The translations under genes and the position numbers were made by a program. 64,000 bases of DNA from a virus (Duplodnaviria > Caudoviricetes): positions 343 through 64,342 of the IMG/VR virus record IMGVR_UViG_3300033388_000803; one strand, written 5' to 3'. Below the pieces are notes generated by a model, which saw only the letters and a program-made list of their open reading frames with translations, was not told the DNA's origin and did no database searches. How positions within the stretch are numbered: position 1 is the first letter of the stretch; each line of letters starts with the position of its first letter. Below are positions 35,766 to 60,590 of this stretch, one piece after another.

Positions 35766-38700
35766 ATGAACAACGAAGCTATTAAAAAATTATACGAAGC
35801 TTTAGCTGCTGATTATGAATTAGGCAGTATAGAGGAATTTACCGCTTATCTTCAAGATGATAATAAGCGTAAGTTGTTTTACGAGCAAGTTATTGAACCA
35901 AATTTTGAGATTGAAAGTTATGAAGTTTTTGAACAAGCCTATGGCTTAAAAAAAAAAGACGTATCCGAACCTACTGGGGATCAGGAGCCTATGGAATCTC
36001 CTTCACAACCAAATCAAGATCCTTTTTCTTCGGACTCTTCAAACGAACCAACAGCCCCAATAGATCCAACAACGGGACTTCCATTTAAGGATGATGATAC
36101 TCAGGTAATAGAAGAAGATATTAGTATCGATGATATTGAAGGGGGTGATACTGGAATTACCAGTATAAATCCCGTAGAAAGAGATCAAACTACAGAGCTA
36201 TACAACAGAGGAGAATTTTTTATAGAAGGTTCTCAAGAAAAAGATACATACCTAGAACAGTTAGTAGGTAAAAATTCCGTAACCGATCTTATTGGAGATA
36301 TATATCGTGCTGGTAAACAAGGACTTATGCAGGGTAACACAGCTGATGAGGCAGCTTCTTTAATGATTAGTGGTAGTGATGCTACTGATGAGCAGGTAGA
36401 AGCGTTTTTGCAATCTCAAGAAGCATTACAAAATCAAGGAACTACAGATGAGATGATGAATTTTAACAGAATTTATGATCAAGCTGATAATAAGTTTGCT
36501 GGTTTTTTAGAAGCTTTAGCAAAAAACCCGTCAGCTATTTTACAGATAGGTGCACAAACAATTACTCAGTTAATGAACCCTGCATCCTTAGCTGCTGGTG
36601 GGGCCACTATAGCAGCTGGGGCTGCATATGGTGCTGGTACAGGAGCGTTTGCTGGAGGAGTAGGAGCAGCCCCTGGAGCATTAATAGGAGCATTTAATCC
36701 AGGAACATTAAGAACAGCATTTGCTATGGCTTCAGGAGCACTAGAATCTAGCTTGTCATTTGCTGAATTTATAAAAGAAGAGATAGACAAAAGAGATGAC
36801 TTAGAGTTTAATGAAGATGGTATAAAGGCTATTTTAAGAAACGAAGATGCCTTTAATAGAATATGGAGAAAGTCTGTAGGTAGAGGAGCTGCAATAGGTA
36901 TTATAGACAGATTGTCATTAGGAGTAGGGGGCCGAATTATAAAAGCAAAAAAATTAACTGGCAAGGCTGCTGTTGGTACAACATTAGCAACCGAAATGAT
37001 TGGAGGTGGTGTAGGTGAATCGGCAGCTAGGGCGTTGGTAGGACAAGAACAAGATGTAAGAGAGATAGGTTTTGAAACTATTGGAGGTGCTGGTAAGGCA
37101 CCAATAAGTTATGCTATTAATAAAGTATCAGACCCAGTTACAACTCCAATTAAAAAGGCAATGTTAAACAAAGCAGAAAGCTTTTTATTTCCACCAACTT
37201 ATAAGTTAATTGACGCACAAGGTGAAAGTGTTGCTCAAACCAAAGAGGATGTTATTGAAACGATTGACAATACAGACGATGTAACATTTATGGGATTAAA
37301 TTATAAAATCTCTAATGATCCTGAATTGAAAAAAAGATACGATGATAGAAAGATGCGTATTATTACAGGGGAAAATATAAGACAAAAAATAGAAGCTGCT
37401 GGTATAACTAATCAAGCAAATATTGATAAGATAGTTGATTTAGAAATAGAAAAAAACAATTTTATAGGTAACGACACTGAGGCTGGCAAAAAAAGATTAA
37501 AAGAAATAAAAGAAGAGATATCAAAGTTAAGTGGTATAACTGATGACGAAACTGTTACTGATGAGGTTGAGGCCCCAGTAATTGATGGTCTTGGAGGAGA
37601 CGGAAGAAGAGCTGGAAGTAATACGGTAGTTTTAAATGATGATGGTACTATAATTTTAAATACATTTGATAGAGATGGAACGAATACTACTAGAAATAAA
37701 AAATTACCACAAAGAGTTATAGACAAACAAAATTCAGAACGTAAAGGAAAAAAATCTTTAAAAGGAGTTCAAAGCAAAGTAAGCGACAGAGTATATATTG
37801 TAGAAGACCAAGAGAGTAAAGGGAGACCTGATGAGGCTTATTCCGAAAAATATGCTGAGGGGTATAGTGCACGAACAAAAGATAAAGACGGTAATCTTAA
37901 TAACAAAGAGGCTAATGAAAAAGTATTAATTACAAGAGCTGAAAATGCTGCTAAGGCAATGGCTAAACTTTTACCAGGAACCAATATCGTACTGCACAAA
38001 ACACAAAAGAGTTATCAAAGAGGTTATGGGTTTGGAAGTAACCCATCTTCAAGGGGTCACTACAGTTCGTCTTCAAATGACATTCATATTAATATGCCAT
38101 ATGCAACTGAACAGACTATTGCACACGAAGTTTTTCATGCCTTATTAGCAAACCAGTTTGCCAAGCTAACTAATGTTACTAAAAATATGGCGGAGACTTT
38201 AAAAAGACAAATTAAAGATCCAAAACTTAGTAAGGAAATAGATACATTCATAAAAATGTATAAACCAAAACAGCGTAATGAAGAAGTTCTTACAAAGTTT
38301 ATAGGTAAAATGGCACAAAATTTTGACACCTTAAAGGCACCTGAGAAAAAAACAGTTAAGACATGGGTAGAAAAAGTAGTAGACTTTTTTGCTCCGTCTA
38401 CTCCTGAAATAAAAGAAGTAACAAGAGATTTTGTAGCTACTGATGAAAATTTAAAAGAACTTTTAACGTCTCTAGCTGAAGACATAACACAAGGTACTGA
38501 AGTTGAAAGTGTTGACTTTAGTGCATTTGATGTTGCAGATATGGGTAGACCAGTTGAGGGAGCTGACGGGCCGATACCGAGTAATATAAATAATGAGGGG
38601 CCACCTATAGAAGTTAATGCAGAGCAAATAGATAGAGGAGGTATTGATGTAAACACCATCAAGAGAGGTGATATAAATGAACTAGAAGGAGCAAATGCTT

Positions 38701-41700
38701 TTGTTTTTGCAGCAGACCAAGCAACATACGGTATGATTGAAAGTCCATCAGGAACTAGATTTATGTTTAATGGTGGGTTTATGTATCCATACGGTTCACA
38801 GTCACAGGGTGGTAATTCAGCATGGGTTTTTTCTAACGAGACAGCTGCAAAAAAAGTTTTACAAAAAATAACATCAAGTGACGGTGTTGGTTTGGTTATG
38901 TCACAAGCACCAGCAGGAGTATCAGGCAACCTACAGTTTTATGATTTCTTAAATGCAGAGATAGCAAACGCAATAGAAAAAGGAGCTTCACCTAAAGAAA
39001 TGGTTGACTTTATAAATCAGAAACTAAAGCTGACAAAAGTTGCACAAGGGCTACAAAAGAAAGGTTTGCCAACACAAATTAAAGACTATCAAGAACTGCA
39101 AGATTTATTTAAAACAACAAATTTTGAAGTAAGAGGCGAGTTTGCAAGAACATTTATGAGTAAAGAATCTTTTGAAAAATTTGGAATATATCCATTTTCT
39201 CCTCTTAAAACTATTGATGGTAATATAGAAAGTATTGTTAATGACCCAGCATTAAAAAACATAAACTACGGTGATGTAGTGTCAGCCATTCAGTTTGATA
39301 AAGATGGCGAGGTGGTAAGATTAAATGAAGATGATCCTGGATATCACCCAGCTTATCCTTTTTCTTTACCAGGGAAACCTATTATGGTATTTAACAATGG
39401 TATAGACGTAAGAAATATTTATCCTAAAGCAAAACCAGCTAACCCTAAAATGAATCAAACACCTTTAGGAGAAAGAGGTAAAAGTGTTGCGGCTCGATCA
39501 GCTATGGGTGGTCAATACATATCTAATGTTCCAAAAGATGTACAATCAGAAGATGCGTCTATAGATATATCACAAGAAAAAATAGATAAGAAAAAAATAA
39601 TAGGTAAGAAAAAAACTACAGAAGAAACTCAAACAAAAGATGAAAACCAAACTTACTTATTTATATCTCAAGACCCCCAGTTAGTTGCAGAAGTAGAGAC
39701 AAATATTTTAAAAGGATTAAATCAAGGATTCAAAAAAGGTTTAGGAACAATAAGAGAATATTTAAAAACTTTAAAAAACGATGGTAGGCTTGGCAATAAA
39801 GAAGTAGGTAAAATATTAGAGCTTGTTGTTGAGGAAGATGCTTTTGCAAATAAAGAGGCAAGAAATGAAACGGTAGATAAAATTAAAAAAATACTTACTA
39901 ATGCCGACAAACAAGCTGAATTTAGTAAGTTAAGAACTAAAGCAAAAAGAGCTGCTAAAAATTTAAAAAGAAGTATTGGTAGAATTATTTCAGACGCTAT
40001 TAGTGGTAAAGACGTAACTCTAGAAAGTTTACTTAGAGATGTGGTTACTATAGACCCGTCAGTAGTACCAGAAGAAGTGTATCAAGATTATAAAGATATA
40101 ATAGAAGGTTTAGGCGATAGACTTGTAATGTTAGACAATGCCGAGGACGCTGGTTTGGTTGCTGTAAAATCTCGTAGGGTATTAGAAGCCATGAATAATG
40201 TATACTCTAGAATACCTCAGCTGATAGCTTTATTCTTAGACAATGTAATTATAAGTCCAAAGGGAACTGTGGCTTATAAAAAAACTATAGACTTTTTATT
40301 AGAGAATGATTTAATAACAGAAAGTGATGTTTCTATTATGAGAGTATATAGAGACACAATAAACCCTAGAGTAAAGACTGTAAAGACTGATAAACAAAAA
40401 GCAGCTGAAAGAAAAAAACTTATTGAAGGAATTAAAAAAATTAAAATAAAGAAAGAAAGAATAGATTCGGGATTAACATCATTTCCTTTTAGAAAAACAA
40501 GAGAGGATATCAGAGAGTTTATAAAGTTAATTAAAGATCAAAAGGCTTTGGAAGGGTTACCTAATGAAGACTTAAATAATATAATTAGACTTGCCAACAC
40601 TATTAATAATGGTTATGCCCCAGGTATAATGTCTAGATTAATATCTAAAATAAAAGCTCAAAGAGATGCAGCTCCAATTATTAGTGATATAAAAAGTAAA
40701 AAACTAAAGCTACCAACTGTAGAGGGTATATATTCTAAGCTTAAAACCTTTAATCCTTTTAATAAGCAATCTAAATTTTATAACGCATTAGAAAGAGGAC
40801 AGCTTTTTAACATAGACAGATTGTTTGGAAATTTTGACACAAAGAAAATGTTTAATGCTTTCTTTAATGACATGGCTGTTAACCAACAGCAAATGGAAGT
40901 TAGTAATAAAAAAGAAAGTAAATTAAGAGATAATGCTAGAAAACTGTTAGAAAAAGCATACACTAAGTTAGGAGTTGTTTCACAAAACAAGGTTGCTGAA
41001 GCTGATGCAAGACTAATGTTTTATAGAATACAACTCGAGTATGATACAAATAGACTTACAGATAAAAAAGTAAAACCAGCAATAGAATGGTTAGATGCCA
41101 CTATTCAATACTTAGAGGCCAACCAACTATACGATCCTCAAAGCAAAAGAGAGGTTGAAGTATTAAAAAAGATTAGAAAAGACTATGATAAAAAAGATGT
41201 TAGTGTAAGTAGTATATATAACAAGTTTAATAAAGAAGAAAAAGAGGCTTTAAAAATATTACAACAAATTGATATTGATAACACAGCAAAGGCAGTATAC
41301 GCTGCTCAACAAAGAGACGCTGCATTTATAGCACGACAAAACTATACACACATATCTGTAAGGCCAAAGAGTAGAGAGAGAGTCGATATAAATAAAGATG
41401 TAATAAATGACTTTATAAATAGCACAGACGCAAACAGAAGACCATCTACAAAATCTAAGTCAGGAATTGAAAGAACAGGATTAGTAAGTCCGATTTATAC
41501 CAGTGCAATAAACGCATCAGAGAGAGGATCTAAGTTTACAAATTTAGATTACTACATGACTACACCAGTTAGAAAAGCTAAACAAACATTTAAAGCGTTG
41601 AAAGATAAGCTTATAGAAGACTATAAAGGAAGTCCACCAGCAGAAGTTCAAATGTTTTTAGACTCTTTGGATAAAGGAATTAGTCAGTCAGTTCAAAATG

Positions 41701-43292
41701 TTTTAGGAAGTAATTTTGTAGAAAATAGTTTTATGCAAATGGTTTCATCGTCACTACAAAAACTAGGATATAGAACAATGCTAGTTAGTGCACCTAGAGC
41801 TGCGGTAGAGTATTTATCAAACATGATGTTTGCTGCCGTCCACCCAAAGACTTTTGCTTCAGGAGTGTCAAAAAAGAATAATCTATCTAGAGAAGAATTA
41901 GTAAATGTTTTAACTAATTTGGGTAGTAAAGTTATTACCAGGGTTACTGGAAACAATTTAATGTCTTCTAAGGTTGACTTGGAATTGCTTAATAAAAAAT
42001 CATATAAAGGAGAAAGATTTGTAAGTGCAGCTAAAGAAAAAGTAATGGGTGTGTGGGATGCTACAGGTAAAAAAATACAAAACTTTACAGCTCTTATAGC
42101 CGATACTTTGATAAGTAGTCCTGATAAGATGGTAATGAAACCTTTTTTATTAGGTAAGCTGTCTGATACCTTTAAAGAAATAACTGGAAAGGATATAGAC
42201 TATAATAAAATTGCCGCTAATGATGAGGCTTATATAACAGAAAACAAAGAAGCTTTAGATACTGCTATGAAAGAAGCTGATGAGTTTGTTACTTTAATTG
42301 GAGCAACAGATAATCCATTTATGTCAAGGCTACAAGGAAAAGACGCAAAAGGAGTAGAAGAGATTTGGGTAAACTTTAATAATTTTATGACTACATTTTT
42401 AAAGCAGGAGTACGATACATCAGTAGTTGGCTTAGCTGGAGTTATGCAAAATACCTTTACTTATGGTGACAGTAGTATATCAAGAGCTGAGGGAGCTAAA
42501 TTATTAGCTGCGGTAACAATGAGAATGACTGCTTATTCATTAGGAATTAAAGTAGCAGGAGAGTTACTGTTAGAGGCATTTGGAGTAGAAAGTGAAGACG
42601 AAGAAAAAGATCTTGAATTACAAGTTGGGCAAGCATTGGCAACAACCTTTACCTCTTTAATAGTCGGAAGAAACTTTGGTAATGCTTTTAAAACAATACA
42701 AAATTATAATATAGAATTGTTAAATGCAGAGTTTGGGGACGCACTTCGTGATGGTGAGTACGATCAGTATAGAGATGCAATACAGTATAACATCATTCCA
42801 TTAGTTAGAACAGGACAAGATTATAAGTCAGGAAGAGGTATGGATGCTGGTAAAATAGTACCAAACTTTTTAGGCCCTTACTCTCCTCCAGTAAAATCAG
42901 CTGCTTTTGCTTTAAGAAAACTTACTGAGCCTGATAGAAAAACTTCAGAGGCTAGAAGAAGACAGATAAGGGAAAGAGAAGAAAGAATACCTGTAGAACT
43001 TTTAGGCAACACAGGGTTTATACCTTTATACAGAGATGTTAGAAAAGTTTTGTTAGCTGACATATATAAAGACTTAAGAAAGAAAAAAGAAAAAACATAT
43101 AACAGAGAAGAATTAGAAGAGCTTAAAAAAACAAACCCAAGAGAATATCGAAAAGTTGTTTTTGATAAAAAGATGTTAAGATATGAAAAGGCTTTAGAAA
43201 AATATAAGACATATCTTCGTGACAAGAGAGGATGGAGAGATGCAAATCCTGGTAAAAGAAAACCAACTAAACCTAAAAGACCTAGAAAATGA
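35766..43292 (+). CDS. giant ejection/polyvalent protein with zincin metallopeptidase motif
   Basis: 2508 aa; Gly/Ala hydrophobic segment; IHIN...TIAHEVFH (HExxH). Confidence 0.8.
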   Translation: MNNEAIKKLYEALAADYELGSIEEFTAYLQDDNKRKLFYEQVIEPNFEIESYEVFEQAYGLKKKDVSEPTGDQEPMESPSQPNQDPFSSDSSNEPTAPIDPTTGLPFKDDDTQVIEEDISIDDIEGGDTGITSINPVERDQTTELYNRGEFFIEGSQEKDTYLEQLVGKNSVTDLIGDIYRAGKQGLMQGNTADEAASLMISGSDATDEQVEAFLQSQEALQNQGTTDEMMNFNRIYDQADNKFAGFLEALAKNPSAILQIGAQTITQLMNPASLAAGGATIAAGAAYGAGTGAFAGGVGAAPGALIGAFNPGTLRTAFAMASGALESSLSFAEFIKEEIDKRDDLEFNEDGIKAILRNEDAFNRIWRKSVGRGAAIGIIDRLSLGVGGRIIKAKKLTGKAAVGTTLATEMIGGGVGESAARALVGQEQDVREIGFETIGGAGKAPISYAINKVSDPVTTPIKKAMLNKAESFLFPPTYKLIDAQGESVAQTKEDVIETIDNTDDVTFMGLNYKISNDPELKKRYDDRKMRIITGENIRQKIEAAGITNQANIDKIVDLEIEKNNFIGNDTEAGKKRLKEIKEEISKLSGITDDETVTDEVEAPVIDGLGGDGRRAGSNTVVLNDDGTIILNTFDRDGTNTTRNKKLPQRVIDKQNSERKGKKSLKGVQSKVSDRVYIVEDQESKGRPDEAYSEKYAEGYSARTKDKDGNLNNKEANEKVLITRAENAAKAMAKLLPGTNIVLHKTQKSYQRGYGFGSNPSSRGHYSSSSNDIHINMPYATEQTIAHEVFHALLANQFAKLTNVTKNMAETLKRQIKDPKLSKEIDTFIKMYKPKQRNEEVLTKFIGKMAQNFDTLKAPEKKTVKTWVEKVVDFFAPSTPEIKEVTRDFVATDENLKELLTSLAEDITQGTEVESVDFSAFDVADMGRPVEGADGPIPSNINNEGPPIEVNAEQIDRGGIDVNTIKRGDINELEGANAFVFAADQATYGMIESPSGTRFMFNGGFMYPYGSQSQGGNSAWVFSNETAAKKVLQKITSSDGVGLVMSQAPAGVSGNLQFYDFLNAEIANAIEKGASPKEMVDFINQKLKLTKVAQGLQKKGLPTQIKDYQELQDLFKTTNFEVRGEFARTFMSKESFEKFGIYPFSPLKTIDGNIESIVNDPALKNINYGDVVSAIQFDKDGEVVRLNEDDPGYHPAYPFSLPGKPIMVFNNGIDVRNIYPKAKPANPKMNQTPLGERGKSVAARSAMGGQYISNVPKDVQSEDASIDISQEKIDKKKIIGKKKTTEETQTKDENQTYLFISQDPQLVAEVETNILKGLNQGFKKGLGTIREYLKTLKNDGRLGNKEVGKILELVVEEDAFANKEARNETVDKIKKILTNADKQAEFSKLRTKAKRAAKNLKRSIGRIISDAISGKDVTLESLLRDVVTIDPSVVPEEVYQDYKDIIEGLGDRLVMLDNAEDAGLVAVKSRRVLEAMNNVYSRIPQLIALFLDNVIISPKGTVAYKKTIDFLLENDLITESDVSIMRVYRDTINPRVKTVKTDKQKAAERKKLIEGIKKIKIKKERIDSGLTSFPFRKTREDIREFIKLIKDQKALEGLPNEDLNNIIRLANTINNGYAPGIMSRLISKIKAQRDAAPIISDIKSKKLKLPTVEGIYSKLKTFNPFNKQSKFYNALERGQLFNIDRLFGNFDTKKMFNAFFNDMAVNQQQMEVSNKKESKLRDNARKLLEKAYTKLGVVSQNKVAEADARLMFYRIQLEYDTNRLTDKKVKPAIEWLDATIQYLEANQLYDPQSKREVEVLKKIRKDYDKKDVSVSSIYNKFNKEEKEALKILQQIDIDNTAKAVYAAQQRDAAFIARQNYTHISVRPKSRERVDINKDVINDFINSTDANRRPSTKSKSGIERTGLVSPIYTSAINASERGSKFTNLDYYMTTPVRKAKQTFKALKDKLIEDYKGSPPAEVQMFLDSLDKGISQSVQNVLGSNFVENSFMQMVSSSLQKLGYRTMLVSAPRAAVEYLSNMMFAAVHPKTFASGVSKKNNLSREELVNVLTNLGSKVITRVTGNNLMSSKVDLELLNKKSYKGERFVSAAKEKVMGVWDATGKKIQNFTALIADTLISSPDKMVMKPFLLGKLSDTFKEITGKDIDYNKIAANDEAYITENKEALDTAMKEADEFVTLIGATDNPFMSRLQGKDAKGVEEIWVNFNNFMTTFLKQEYDTSVVGLAGVMQNTFTYGDSSISRAEGAKLLAAVTMRMTAYSLGIKVAGELLLEAFGVESEDEEKDLELQVGQALATTFTSLIVGRNFGNAFKTIQNYNIELLNAEFGDALRDGEYDQYRDAIQYNIIPLVRTGQDYKSGRGMDAGKIVPNFLGPYSPPVKSAAFALRKLTEPDRKTSEARRRQIREREERIPVELLGNTGFIPLYRDVRKVLLADIYKDLRKKKEKTYNREELEELKKTNPREYRKVVFDKKMLRYEKALEKYKTYLRDKRGWRDANPGKRKPTKPKRPRK

Positions 43293-56187: not shown

Positions 56188-56679
56188 TTATTTTAAATTA
56201 GTAATTAGTCTAAATTGATAATCGTAATCATCTACAAGAGAACAATAATATTTATCTCCATTCTCTTCTGTATCAGAATACTCTTCTAAATCTTCTCCGT
56301 ACTCTTTGTCTAGCCATTCTATTTGCTCTTCATATTGTTTCTTTGTGAGCATTGCACAATCATTTACATTGCATAGAATCATAAACGCATAAGCATCTTT
56401 TATTTCCCATACTTGATAGCTACCACAATTATCGTCATAGGCATCCCAAAAGTATCCGTCTCCATCTACTCCCTTGTCTATTTGTGCATACTCATCAGAG
56501 TATCTTGTTACATCTTTTGCGTCTCCATTAGCATTGCTCAATGCTCTTTTATATGCCCATTTGAATGCTGATTTTTTGTATGCAAATTGTTTTGTATCTA
56601 TTCCATTTTCTGAAGAATATCCATCTCCGTTCCATGTATCGATAACTATATATTTTTTAATGTTGTTTTTTAGTCTCAT
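56188..56679 (-). CDS. acidic hypothetical early protein
   Basis: 163 aa, IDTWNGDGYS motif. Confidence 0.75.
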   Translation of the reverse strand: MRLKNNIKKYIVIDTWNGDGYSSENGIDTKQFAYKKSAFKWAYKRALSNANGDAKDVTRYSDEYAQIDKGVDGDGYFWDAYDDNCGSYQVWEIKDAYAFMILCNVNDCAMLTKKQYEEQIEWLDKEYGEDLEEYSDTEENGDKYYCSLVDDYDYQFRLITNLK

Positions 56680-56918
56680 TATTGTAATTGGTTTTCGTTA
56701 ATATAATCTACTATATCATCCCATATTCCCTCTAACTTCTCTGTCACATCGTCATTGTTTAGCATCAGTTTTGCTATCTCAATGTTGTGGTATCTAGGTG
56801 TACTTCTGTCCTCTGCTTCAGGGCAATCTGTCTCCCAATAAGTCACTCCAAGAACATTGTTCTTGCTTAACTCATAACAAGTATATTTAGTTTGTGTGTA
56901 GCTGTTTGTTGTAATCAT
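56679..56918 (-). CDS. hypothetical early protein
   Basis: Likely start MITTNSY (56918); the upstream extension in the ORF track reads through the ribozyme. Confidence 0.7.
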   Translation of the reverse strand: MITTNSYTQTKYTCYELSKNNVLGVTYWETDCPEAEDRSTPRYHNIEIAKLMLNNDDVTEKLEGIWDDIVDYINENQLQ

Positions 56919-56944
56919 GTTATTTAATTTAATTGGTATCTTAT

Positions 56945-56998
56945 GATACTGACGAGCATTTCTGCTCGTTTCGGACATTGAGTCCTCATCAGAGTATC
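56945..56998 (-). ncRNA. hammerhead ribozyme, type I
   Basis: GAUACU-CUGAUGA-GGAC-ucaau-GUCC-GAA-ACGAGCA-gaaa-UGCUCGU-C^AGUAUC: complete catalytic core and three perfect stems. Confidence 0.95.
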
Positions 56999-57267
56999 TA
57001 GCTATTGTAATCCTCAAGCTGAGTCTTGAATCCCTCTAAGCATTCTAATAGTCCATGCTTGTCGTACCCCATTTTCTCTAGCCCAAAGTATGCTTTAACA
57101 CCTTTGAGAGTGTAATGTCTGTGTGGCTTTAATCCCCTTATAAACATCTTTAGTTCTGCGATAGATAATACTAGATTGTACCATCCTTTATTACCATCTC
57201 TACCATTGATGTTCATCGGCTTGTCAAAGTCCTTACCGAATTGTGTATCTCTTACTGTGTATTCCAT
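56998..57267 (-). CDS. hypothetical early protein
   Basis: 89 aa; stop codon overlaps first base of hammerhead. Confidence 0.75.
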   Translation of the reverse strand: MEYTVRDTQFGKDFDKPMNINGRDGNKGWYNLVLSIAELKMFIRGLKPHRHYTLKGVKAYFGLEKMGYDKHGLLECLEGFKTQLEDYNS

Positions 57268-58973: not shown

Positions 58974-60590
58974 ATGAAATCTCAGGGATACATACCAAAG
59001 GACTTGTCGTTTGACGATGAAGCTCGCCACAAATTAATTCAAGGAATAACTAAAATTTCAAAAGCCGTAAAGAGCACATTAGGGCCTTTAGGTAAGACTG
59101 TGCTTATAGAATCTGCCGATCATTTAAAAGGGATTACTATAACTAAAGACGGAGTTACTGTAGCACAGTCAGTATTCTTAGATGATCCAATAGAAAACCT
59201 TGCAATACAAATGATGAAGGATGCAGCTAGTCGAACGGCTAATACAGCTGGTGACGGAACAACTACAGCTATTGTATTGACAGAAGCTATTGTAATGGCA
59301 GGACAAAAGTATTTAGAAAAAGGATGCAACATAACTGAAGTTATAAAATACATTAATGACTATACTAAAGAAATTGTAAAAAGTTTAACTAAGAACTCAA
59401 AGAAAGTAACTCCAGCAAGACTATTAGACGTAGCTTGTATATCAGCTAATAATGACAAGGCGATTGGTAAGATAATTGCTGACGCTTATAATAAGGTGGG
59501 TGTAAACGGTATTGTTACTGTGGAGAACTCAATGACATCAGAAACATATGCTGAGGTTACAAACGGTATAAAGATTGCCAGAGGATACACATCTAATATG
59601 TTTATCAATAATCAAAAGAAAGATGAGTGTGTATTAGAGGGGGTTAAGATATTAGTTTGTGATGCTGAGATAAGTAGTGTGTTACAAATTGAGAATATAC
59701 TAAAACCTATTATACAAAACCAAGACAAGCTTTTAATTATAGGCCCATGTCATGGTAATGTTATTAATACCTTAGCAGCTAATGTTGTTCGTAATGGACT
59801 AAAGTTCTGTAATATTATACCACCAAACTTTGGATATAAGTCAACTGAGCTAATGAGTGATATTGCTTTTGCTGTTAATGCAAAGTTCTTTAGCGAGAAG
59901 ACTGGTGATGATTTAAGTTTAATCAGAATGGAGGACTTAGGTTATGCTGATAAAATAGTATCTAGTCTAGAGACCACTATTATATTTAAGGAAGATGAGA
60001 AACCCGAAGAAACTAACAAACGTATATTTCAACTAAAGGTACAGCAAGAAAACACCACGATAAAGCATGAGCGTGAGTTTATTAATGAGCGTATAGCTAG
60101 TTTAGCTGGAGCAATAGGATGTATATTTGTAGGAGGTAACTCTGATGTAGAGCAAAAAGAATTGTATGACAGGGTTGATGACTCAGTGTGTGCAGTAAGA
60201 TCAGCTTTAGATGAAGGTATAATTGCTGGTGGAGGACTAGCACTACTAAGAGAGTCGATTAGTTTATTAAATAAATCTAAAGTAGACAGTAAGGAAAATG
60301 AAAACTTAGCCAGGCTAATACTGTCAACTGCCTTACAAGCTCCAATAAATCAAATATGCAATAATGCTGAGATAGAAATTGAATGGATTATGGAGCACAT
60401 ATATAATAATAAACATAACTTTGGGTTTGATGTAAAGAACGAAGAGTATGGTGATATGTTTAAGATGGGAATTATAGATCCTTTAAAGGTAACCAAGAAT
60501 GCCTTGCTAAATGCAGTAAGTGTAGCTACAACTATATTAAGTACCAATGCTATTATAACCCATAAAAGACAAAGTCAAAGTGATGATTAA
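58974..60590 (+). CDS. groEL: chaperonin GroEL (phage type)
   Basis: TLGP.G, ITKDGVTVA, AGDGTTTA, ISAN, GI.AGGG, GIIDP.KV; no GGM tail. Confidence 0.97.
   Translation: MKSQGYIPKDLSFDDEARHKLIQGITKISKAVKSTLGPLGKTVLIESADHLKGITITKDGVTVAQSVFLDDPIENLAIQMMKDAASRTANTAGDGTTTAIVLTEAIVMAGQKYLEKGCNITEVIKYINDYTKEIVKSLTKNSKKVTPARLLDVACISANNDKAIGKIIADAYNKVGVNGIVTVENSMTSETYAEVTNGIKIARGYTSNMFINNQKKDECVLEGVKILVCDAEISSVLQIENILKPIIQNQDKLLIIGPCHGNVINTLAANVVRNGLKFCNIIPPNFGYKSTELMSDIAFAVNAKFFSEKTGDDLSLIRMEDLGYADKIVSSLETTIIFKEDEKPEETNKRIFQLKVQQENTTIKHEREFINERIASLAGAIGCIFVGGNSDVEQKELYDRVDDSVCAVRSALDEGIIAGGGLALLRESISLLNKSKVDSKENENLARLILSTALQAPINQICNNAEIEIEWIMEHIYNNKHNFGFDVKNEEYGDMFKMGIIDPLKVTKNALLNAVSVATTILSTNAIITHKRQSQSDD

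Follow-up and report, generated by a model that had tools for sequence, protein, structure and literature searches.

The strands of viroid and satellite-RNA hammerheads take part in alternative folds that limit self-cleavage or favour the ligated form, and these ribozymes serve the rolling-circle replication of circular RNAs. In bacterial mRNAs of the ompA type, a stabiliser hairpin is located at the 5' terminus, within a nucleotide or two of the end. Hammerheads of phages and prophages were described in 2011 as intergenic and tandem elements lying between co-oriented genes in polycistronic RNAs (e.g., HHphage of haloviruses HF1 and HF2, which is found 13 nt upstream of a start codon; PMC3088659). 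The role proposed for phage hammerheads is mRNA processing (PMC3088659; PMC6765202), and the function of genomic hammerheads in bacteria and phages is still described as an open question (PMC6765202). Engineered relatives include RiboJ, in which the sTRSV hammerhead is directly followed by a 23-nt hairpin (PMC8794103), and hammerhead switches designed around trans oligonucleotides or aptamers, whereby a strand that displaces the proper partner of a ribozyme strand sets the ribozyme on or off (PMC2777235).

Here, we describe a predicted type I hammerhead between two genes of a phage, in which the 3' strand of stem I is followed by a short complement that could pair with it in place of the ribozyme partner. 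In contrast to the viroid and satellite hammerheads, it belongs to an mRNA of a phage with double-stranded DNA, and the alternative structure is a minimal local hairpin, which has a 5' position similar to that of the ompA-type hairpin, but at an end that is predicted to be ribozyme-made and to carry a 5'-OH. Like the hammerheads of Perreault et al. (2011), the element lies between co-oriented phage genes and has relatives in tandem copies; however, the tertiary contacts reported there are pseudoknots or loop-loop contacts, stem I consists here of 6 bp with open ends and nothing added, and in the sections of that report cited here no strand of stem I has a conserved hairpin as a competitor (PMC3088659). 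As with RiboJ, the processed mRNA would start with a small hairpin before the translation start, but the RiboJ hairpin is a separate helix (PMC8794103), whereas the hairpin described here is natural, has 5 bp and is made from the stem I 3' strand itself. The principle is also that of the engineered switches (PMC2777235), with the difference that the competitor is in cis and always present.

A literature search that covered published texts rather than their supplementary alignments, and that included a 2026 deep-sea survey (PMC13481778), returned no conserved stem I competitor hairpin in phage hammerheads in the portions of the sources that it reached. Intergenic phage hammerheads are known, and some members of the family described below may already be in the supplementary alignments of Perreault et al. 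(2011); the conserved competitor hairpin on stem I appears to be new. Because the family has many natural copies in which a single clean add-on is present or absent at one and the same gene junction, it provides a ready-made comparison, which bears on whether phages tune the completeness or irreversibility with which a ribozyme cuts a polycistronic message. If the interpretation is true, nature would have its own equivalent of the RiboJ insulator and of switches designed around strand competition.

The hammerhead and its genomic setting

The window (the whole stretch of 64,000 nt that was analysed) comprises nearly all of a 64,342-nt genome with 33% G+C. The contig begins and finishes with the same 20 nt, as would a circular or terminally redundant assembly, and a lysine/alanine-rich repeat is encoded at these ends, which lie 342 nt before the start of the window and at the end of the window. 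Phage gene content includes a BT4734-type primase, GroEL and very large ORFs. The GroEL-type chaperonin (538 aa) is encoded at 58974-60590 (+), and the ORF at 35766-43292 (+) has 2508 aa, with PHROG matches that are all of unknown function. Comparison of the primase places the nearest isolated relatives among phages that infect Flavobacterium, Polaribacter, Cellulophaga and Maribacter.

The site of interest is an 80-nt stretch that separates an 89-aa gene from a 79-aa gene on the minus strand (Table 1). Relatives of the upstream gene were found by tblastn in four viral loci (E 1e-48 to 2e-20), and neither of the small ORFs on the two sides of the hammerhead matched a PHROG or Pfam family. Searches of isolate phage records by blastn, using the 2-kb region and the 87-nt element as queries, returned no match. 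The downstream gene is also present in another locus (L036), preceded there by a hammerhead with other stems II and III. Its frame in the window is open backwards through the ribozyme up to a TTG at 57017, and this open frame was rejected as coding, given that the extension is not conserved and that ribozyme lengths vary by non-multiples of 3. No excess of sigma-70-like promoters and no terminator was detected in the vicinity of the site.

Table 1. Position of the predicted ribozyme elements and flanking genes, in transcript order.
Feature	Position	Strand	Basis
Upstream gene, 89 aa, no family	56998..57267	(-)	ORF list, translation, tblastn
Stem I 5' strand GAUACU	56993..56998	(-)	pairs with 56950..56945 in MFE fold
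Core CUGAUGA (C3-A9)	56986..56992	(-)	sequence
Stem II GGAC/GUCC with loop UCAAU	56973..56985	(-)	sequence, fold
Core G12 A13 A14 (GAA)	56970..56972	(-)	sequence
Stem III ACGAGCA/UGCUCGU, 7 bp from A15.1 to U16.1, GAAA tetraloop	56952..56969	(-)	sequence, fold
Predicted cleavage site, C17 (56951) / A1.1 (56950)	56950..56951	(-)	hammerhead consensus
Stem I 3' strand AGUAUC, common to both folds	56945..56950	(-)	sequence, fold
Add-on: AUAA loop (56944..56941) and GAUAC arm (56940..56936)	56936..56944	(-)	centroid fold
A/U-rich leader without Shine-Dalgarno motif, up to the next start codon	56919..56935	(-)	sequence
Downstream gene, 79 aa from ATG 56918	56679..56918	(-)	ORF list

Judged by its sequence, the segment 56998..56945 (-) is a complete type I hammerhead. 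All core positions are present (CUGAUGA, G10.1-C11.1, GAA, A15.1-U16.1 and C17, so that H17 is not G), and the cleavage position, 56951/56950, is presumed from the established hammerhead consensus; self-cleavage there would leave a 2',3'-cyclic phosphate and a 5'-OH. A purpose-built hammerhead descriptor produced a single match across both strands of the 64,342-nt genome; on 200 dinucleotide shuffles, the same descriptor gave four loose matches, none of which was as good as the real site. The 81-nt fold has a z-score of -3.25, and none of 200 shuffles was equally stable. At gathering score, Rfam models matched nothing in the window and nothing in 10 loci rich in hammerheads (83,101 bases); with E relaxed to 10, searches of 301 nt and of 81 nt likewise yielded no hammerhead family. 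The hammerhead assignment was kept despite this failure because the core and helices are complete, and a large, well-conserved hammerhead family of marine-type phages would appear to be missed by current Rfam models. A covariance model of the family scores the site at 78.8 bits, having been built from that very site, and a search of the window with the family model found no other hammerhead copy.

Fast natural hammerheads need a tertiary contact between stem I and loop II. For a pseudoknot between loop II and the 3' tail, no consistent partner was found among the listed copies that were inspected. It may be speculated that the A/U-rich tails on either side of stem I could make tertiary contacts.

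A family of intergenic hammerheads in phage contigs

Pattern scans revealed a large family of type I hammerheads in phage contigs, the closest isolated relatives of which infect Flavobacteriia. The collection has 144 distinct copies, of which the window contributes 1, viral loci 66 and metagenome loci 77. N7 is U in 133 of them, 138 have C at H17, and stem I is a bare helix of 6 bp in 128. A downstream ORF was called for 137 copies; its ATG is found 12-30 nt past stem I in 135 of these, and 33 and 47 nt past it in the two remaining copies. The longest upstream frame seems to end within the ribozyme in some copies (at the UGA of CUGAUGA in six, at a UAA in loop II in 11), the frame choice being automatic and perhaps wrong for some of them.

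Conservation of the helices was assessed in a gapless alignment of 25 copies, drawn from 113 distinct sequences for their identical 54-nt layout. Both sides have changed in 14 of the 17 pairs, and the covariation score was reached by none of 500 shuffles; in the core columns, CUGAUGA is invariant except for N7, and GAA is invariant. Across the family, changes on both sides are seen in 6/6 pairs of stem I, 3/4 of stem II and 5/7 of stem III. The figure of 100% paired for the 25-copy alignment is circular, since the descriptor requires pairing. A probe that fixed only the 5' strand, the core and GAAAC was followed by the full 3' half in 93 of 104 matches, which provides non-circular support for the hammerhead helices.

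The same element is present in the close relative L001/L005, whose flanking protein is 85% identical. Over the 73 nt that run from UAG to AAUUAAA, it differs from the window at one position, the flanks are about 87% identical, and an 18-nt indel is located directly ahead of the stop; the stem III loop of L001 is GCAA, as against GAAA in the window. More distant homologues of the upstream gene (L002:1650-1950, L003:1650-1950 and L004:1400-1700) have a G+C-rich stem-loop and no hammerhead at the junction, with a run of T after the stem-loop in L004:1400-1700. It may be that the ribozyme takes the place of a transcript-end signal.

Marine-type phage contigs (L007-L030, L150-L251) contain hammerheads of 50-100 nt, often several per contig, e.g., five in 3.6 kb of L030 (L030:1169-3607) and four in L022 (L022:4420-7817). 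Neighbouring copies have the same stem I strand in 10 of 44 adjacent pairs, compared with 8% of random pairs; the idea that stem I shared between neighbours generates circular mRNAs was set aside, this excess being too weak. A class with AAUACU/AGUAUU as stem I and no arm occurs in Flavobacteriales genome bins and single-cell assemblies (L253-L269), including a copy on a 1.39-Mb contig (L263:5191-5240), and recurs between '...GAATTTTAA' and a gene starting MKNFS/MKKT. The family may thus be represented here by a copy in a chromosome or prophage, and this class hints at the host group.

From their sequences, the hammerheads look like recombination junctions. Between L140:8960-9163 and L170:6702-6905, the downstream gene and stem III are alike, and neither the upstream gene nor stem II shows any relationship. 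In an ungapped comparison of copy pairs, in which indels inflate the one-side-only count, 108 pairs were alike on the downstream side only (a shared downstream gene with unrelated upstream 30 nt), 38 on the upstream side only and 19 on both. Mixed stem I strands (GAUACU with AGUAUU or AGUAUA) likewise look like products of exchange.

The competitor arm and its distribution

The competing hairpin, GUAUC-AUAA-GAUAC, takes five of the six nucleotides of the stem I 3' strand and is not a separate helix; the C that follows it (56935) is conserved too. The three strands GAUACU, AGUAUC and GAUAC and the AUAA loop that the initial annotation had listed were all recovered, on the minus strand, which it had left unstated, and the two pairings of AGUAUC that it described as mutually exclusive are so, with matched energies. 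For the 81-nt stretch at 37 °C, the minimum free energy (MFE) structure is the hammerhead fold (-20.2 kcal/mol), and the ensemble centroid has the hairpin replacing stem I (-20.0 kcal/mol). The two folds are thus modelled as mutually exclusive and isoenergetic at 37 °C. The predicted probabilities of stem I and hairpin are 0.32 and 0.66 at 37 °C, 0.06 and 0.94 at 20 °C, and 0.02 and 0.98 at 10 °C, i.e., cold would shift the balance toward the hairpin, in energy predictions that omit hammerhead tertiary folding and Mg2+. The saddle between the folds is about 7.7 kcal/mol above either, and therefore fast exchange is expected, with no trapping. In the 3' product, a 5'-terminal hairpin of -3.9 kcal/mol is predicted, one nucleotide from the 5' end.

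Across 131 of the 144 copies (the other 13 are longer than 75 nt and were left out), the median predicted stem I occupancy at 37 °C is 0.07 with the arm and 0.35 without it, and some arm-less classes have values of 0.04-0.07 that overlap the arm-bearing copies. As a chance background, a compact Watson-Crick hairpin of at least 5 bp is found beside a 6-mer at 1.8% of genome positions, or at 8.7% when G.U is allowed.

Contigs from RNA libraries of two studies span the cleavage site (X16 record 5, X17 record 8). Uncut sequence exists at the site, which fits throttling of the ribozyme and could equally be carried-over DNA; all RNA-library runs are contigs, which are unable to show RNA ends. In X15, two contigs of different depths stop within the ribozyme, one at 56977 and the other, which has adapter letters at its end, at 56995. 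Neither position coincides with the cleavage site, and no conclusion is drawn from these loose ends of a single study. The contig starting at 56995 is six times deeper than the contig over the downstream gene. Another RNA-library contig (X15/X16) matches the ribozyme and continues with unrelated sequence upstream of 57000, and is a relative with a different upstream gene.

The arm is not a family trait and is largely confined to the AGUAUC class. A compact hairpin follows stem I in 57 of the 58 distinct copies with AGUAUC, more than chance would give, compared with 1 of the 86 with other 3' strands. The arm-bearing copies precede 22 gene clusters, 4 of which also contain arm-less copies. The initial annotation had named two things that together would speak against a switch, an arm whose loss has no effect and homologous hammerheads without the arm; of these, the homologues do exist, both with other stem I strands and within the four clusters. 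The arm is not required for the ribozyme as such, on the sequence comparison, because there are homologous hammerheads and orthologous junctions without it.

A probe on the 5' strand and core only, which drew on the 77 metagenome loci and whose matches were counted over all loci, gave 104 matches, of which 93 are hammerheads. AGUAUC is followed by AUAAGAUACC in 73 matches (49 distinct; 32 stem II/III combinations; 43 leaders), so that ATAAGATACC is found in 73 of the 77 hammerheads with 5' GAUACU and 3' AGUAUC. The arm is kept with the next base altered in one match, reads GAUAU (G.U wobble) in two, one of which has a 6-nt loop (L230), and is missing after AGUAUC in one. The arm is also missing from the 10 matches with AGUAUU and the six with AGUAUA. 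Arm-only probes found 5' GAUACU in 12/12 viral loci (7 distinct) and C at the shared position in 13/13 hammerhead-linked loci. An arm with a non-C shared position, or one in bacterial genomes, was rejected, as none of the 22 genome-contig and 7 new viral matches was a hammerhead.

Within the 57 distinct arm-bearing copies, the 10 arm positions are each 95-100% conserved, compared with only 44-91% for leader positions 12-26. The AUAA loop is kept in 56 of the 57, and the C after the arm is 95% conserved. All 79 exact occurrences of GTATCATAAGATAC in 2.06 Mb of loci sit after a hammerhead cleavage site; a DNA palindrome or operator was rejected, given that this sequence is never found apart from a hammerhead there. 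The arm behaves as a pure insertion in these comparisons: an 11-nt allele, C-AUAA-GAUAC-C, replaces the single U or A of arm-less relatives, which have a similar A/U-rich leader directly after stem I. The median distance from stem I to the ATG is 27 nt with the arm (n=52) and 19 nt without it (n=83). In the alignment of L140 and L170, with the downstream gene and stem III in common, there is a 9-nt gap at the arm, and the outer stem I pair differs along with the upstream gene and stem II.

The alternative helix shows no informative covariation of the three-strand kind that the initial annotation called for. At the middle two arm positions and opposite them, all 51 of 51 distinct copies read AT/AT, with no variants, and the sole changes in the alternative helix are arm C to U twice and 5' strand A to G once; three wobble-compatible changes, all of them transitions, are weak evidence. 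A second pattern concerns the outer (sixth) pair of stem I. The arm is always accompanied by a G-C pair at this position, and the 16 matches that combine 5' GAUACU with AGUAUU or AGUAUA (outer G.U or mismatch) are arm-less. This asymmetry is expected if two helices compete. A weakened stem I would be tolerated only without the competitor, as predicted by helix competition, and linkage could also give this pattern.

Pairings of other kinds were not supported. A general family-wide switch was rejected, as 18 of 67 copies have a contiguous complement of at least 5 bp to the stem I 3' strand within 30 nt, compared with 15.9 expected from shuffles. In the non-G stem I classes, a complement to the 3' strand was observed in 10 of 59 copies against 14.7 expected, and long-range pairing with the start-codon region in some arm-less classes was not above chance. 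An extension of stem I through the arm was inconsistent among the copies inspected.

Interpretation of the hairpin

We favour, at a probability of about 0.5, a hairpin under selection, which would first throttle cleavage and afterwards capture the 5' end that the cut creates. The type I hammerhead would cut the phage polycistronic mRNA 48 nt past the stop and 32 nt before the next start, and the 11-nt allele would let the stem I 3' strand fold back on itself. Before the cut, the hairpin would compete with stem I, so that only part of the precursor is active and the ribozyme is throttled, more so in the cold. After the cut, it would capture the freed 5' end and leave the products unable to re-pair and re-join, and the first nucleotide of the downstream mRNA, which carries the 5'-OH, would be directly followed by a hairpin. 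This second effect corresponds to the first inference of the initial annotation, product release and a block on re-ligation, and is plausible. With only 6 bp rich in A/U, stem I should let its product go unaided, and the gain against re-ligation may be small. The three strands, their matched energies, the ribozyme-linked conservation and the G-C dependence are results of the analysis, whereas hairpin formation in the cell is our inference, as is the effect on which selection would act.

The arm might instead have no pairing function, having entered the GAUACU/AGUAUC lineage as a one-time insertion (perhaps by template switching that makes a quasi-palindrome) and spread by recombination of hammerhead cassettes. 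Restriction to one stem I class (57/58 vs 1/86), the lack of covariation and the resemblance of the hammerheads to recombination junctions (L140/L170; 108 copy pairs) are what such a history would leave. However, the arm is near-invariant over 32 stem II/III combinations, 43 leaders and 22 gene clusters, whereas leader positions vary; it never occurs with a non-G 5' strand, though the reverse recombinants exist; and an insertion that roughly halves predicted stem I occupancy should be lost. We regard a purely neutral arm as unlikely.

A more elaborate version of the selected hairpin, which we put forward only tentatively and consider doubtful as a whole, makes the arm a regulatory latch. Most of the precursor would be inactive, the inactive fold being held more in the cold or until a factor or ribosome shifts the balance, and the cut would then lock the 5' end against re-joining by the ribozyme or a host ligase. 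Arm-bearing and arm-less alleles would be exchanged by recombination inside the ribozyme. If this is true, the same junction would be cut to different extents in different phages, and the stem I classes would represent compatibility groups for allele exchange.

Translation could also act on stem I. The UAG stop of the upstream gene (57000..56998) overlaps stem I, as first annotated, with the G at 56998 in common, and a ribosome stopping there might melt stem I so that the ribozyme folds only between terminations. An upstream ORF was called for 140 copies, and in 100 of them its stop has its last base somewhere from 4 nt before stem I to 1 nt into it; since the stop is 5' of the cut, a cleaved message would still terminate normally. 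The adjacency is family-wide and found in arm-bearing and arm-less copies alike, so it is not special to this copy and leaves the arm unexplained, and it may merely reflect tight gene packing. The coupling of cleavage to translation suggested in the initial annotation would, if real, apply to the whole family; it is compatible with the other readings, and we rate it as rather improbable.

Least probable is a phage or host factor that binds the hairpin or its AUAA loop, either stabilising the inactive fold and so switching cleavage off, as the initial annotation also suggested, or recognising the processed 5' end. Loop and stem vary equally little, as expected of a site recognised by its sequence no less than of a simple hairpin (a hairpin alone needs neither AUAA in 56/57 copies nor the C after the arm at 95%), and the motif occurs only beside hammerheads (79/79), but no candidate protein was found, the flanking small ORFs being without PHROG or Pfam match, and L230 is a natural variant with a different 6-nt loop.

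A short segment in the next gene but one (56487-56504, minus strand) resembles both hammerhead ends with the middle absent, GATACTCTGATG directly abutting AGTATG (family model 11.3 bits, E 0.85). This sequence could be a relic or a coincidence. The gene that contains it has a homologue (MKKYIVIDTWNG...) in other phages, where a hammerhead is located in front of it.
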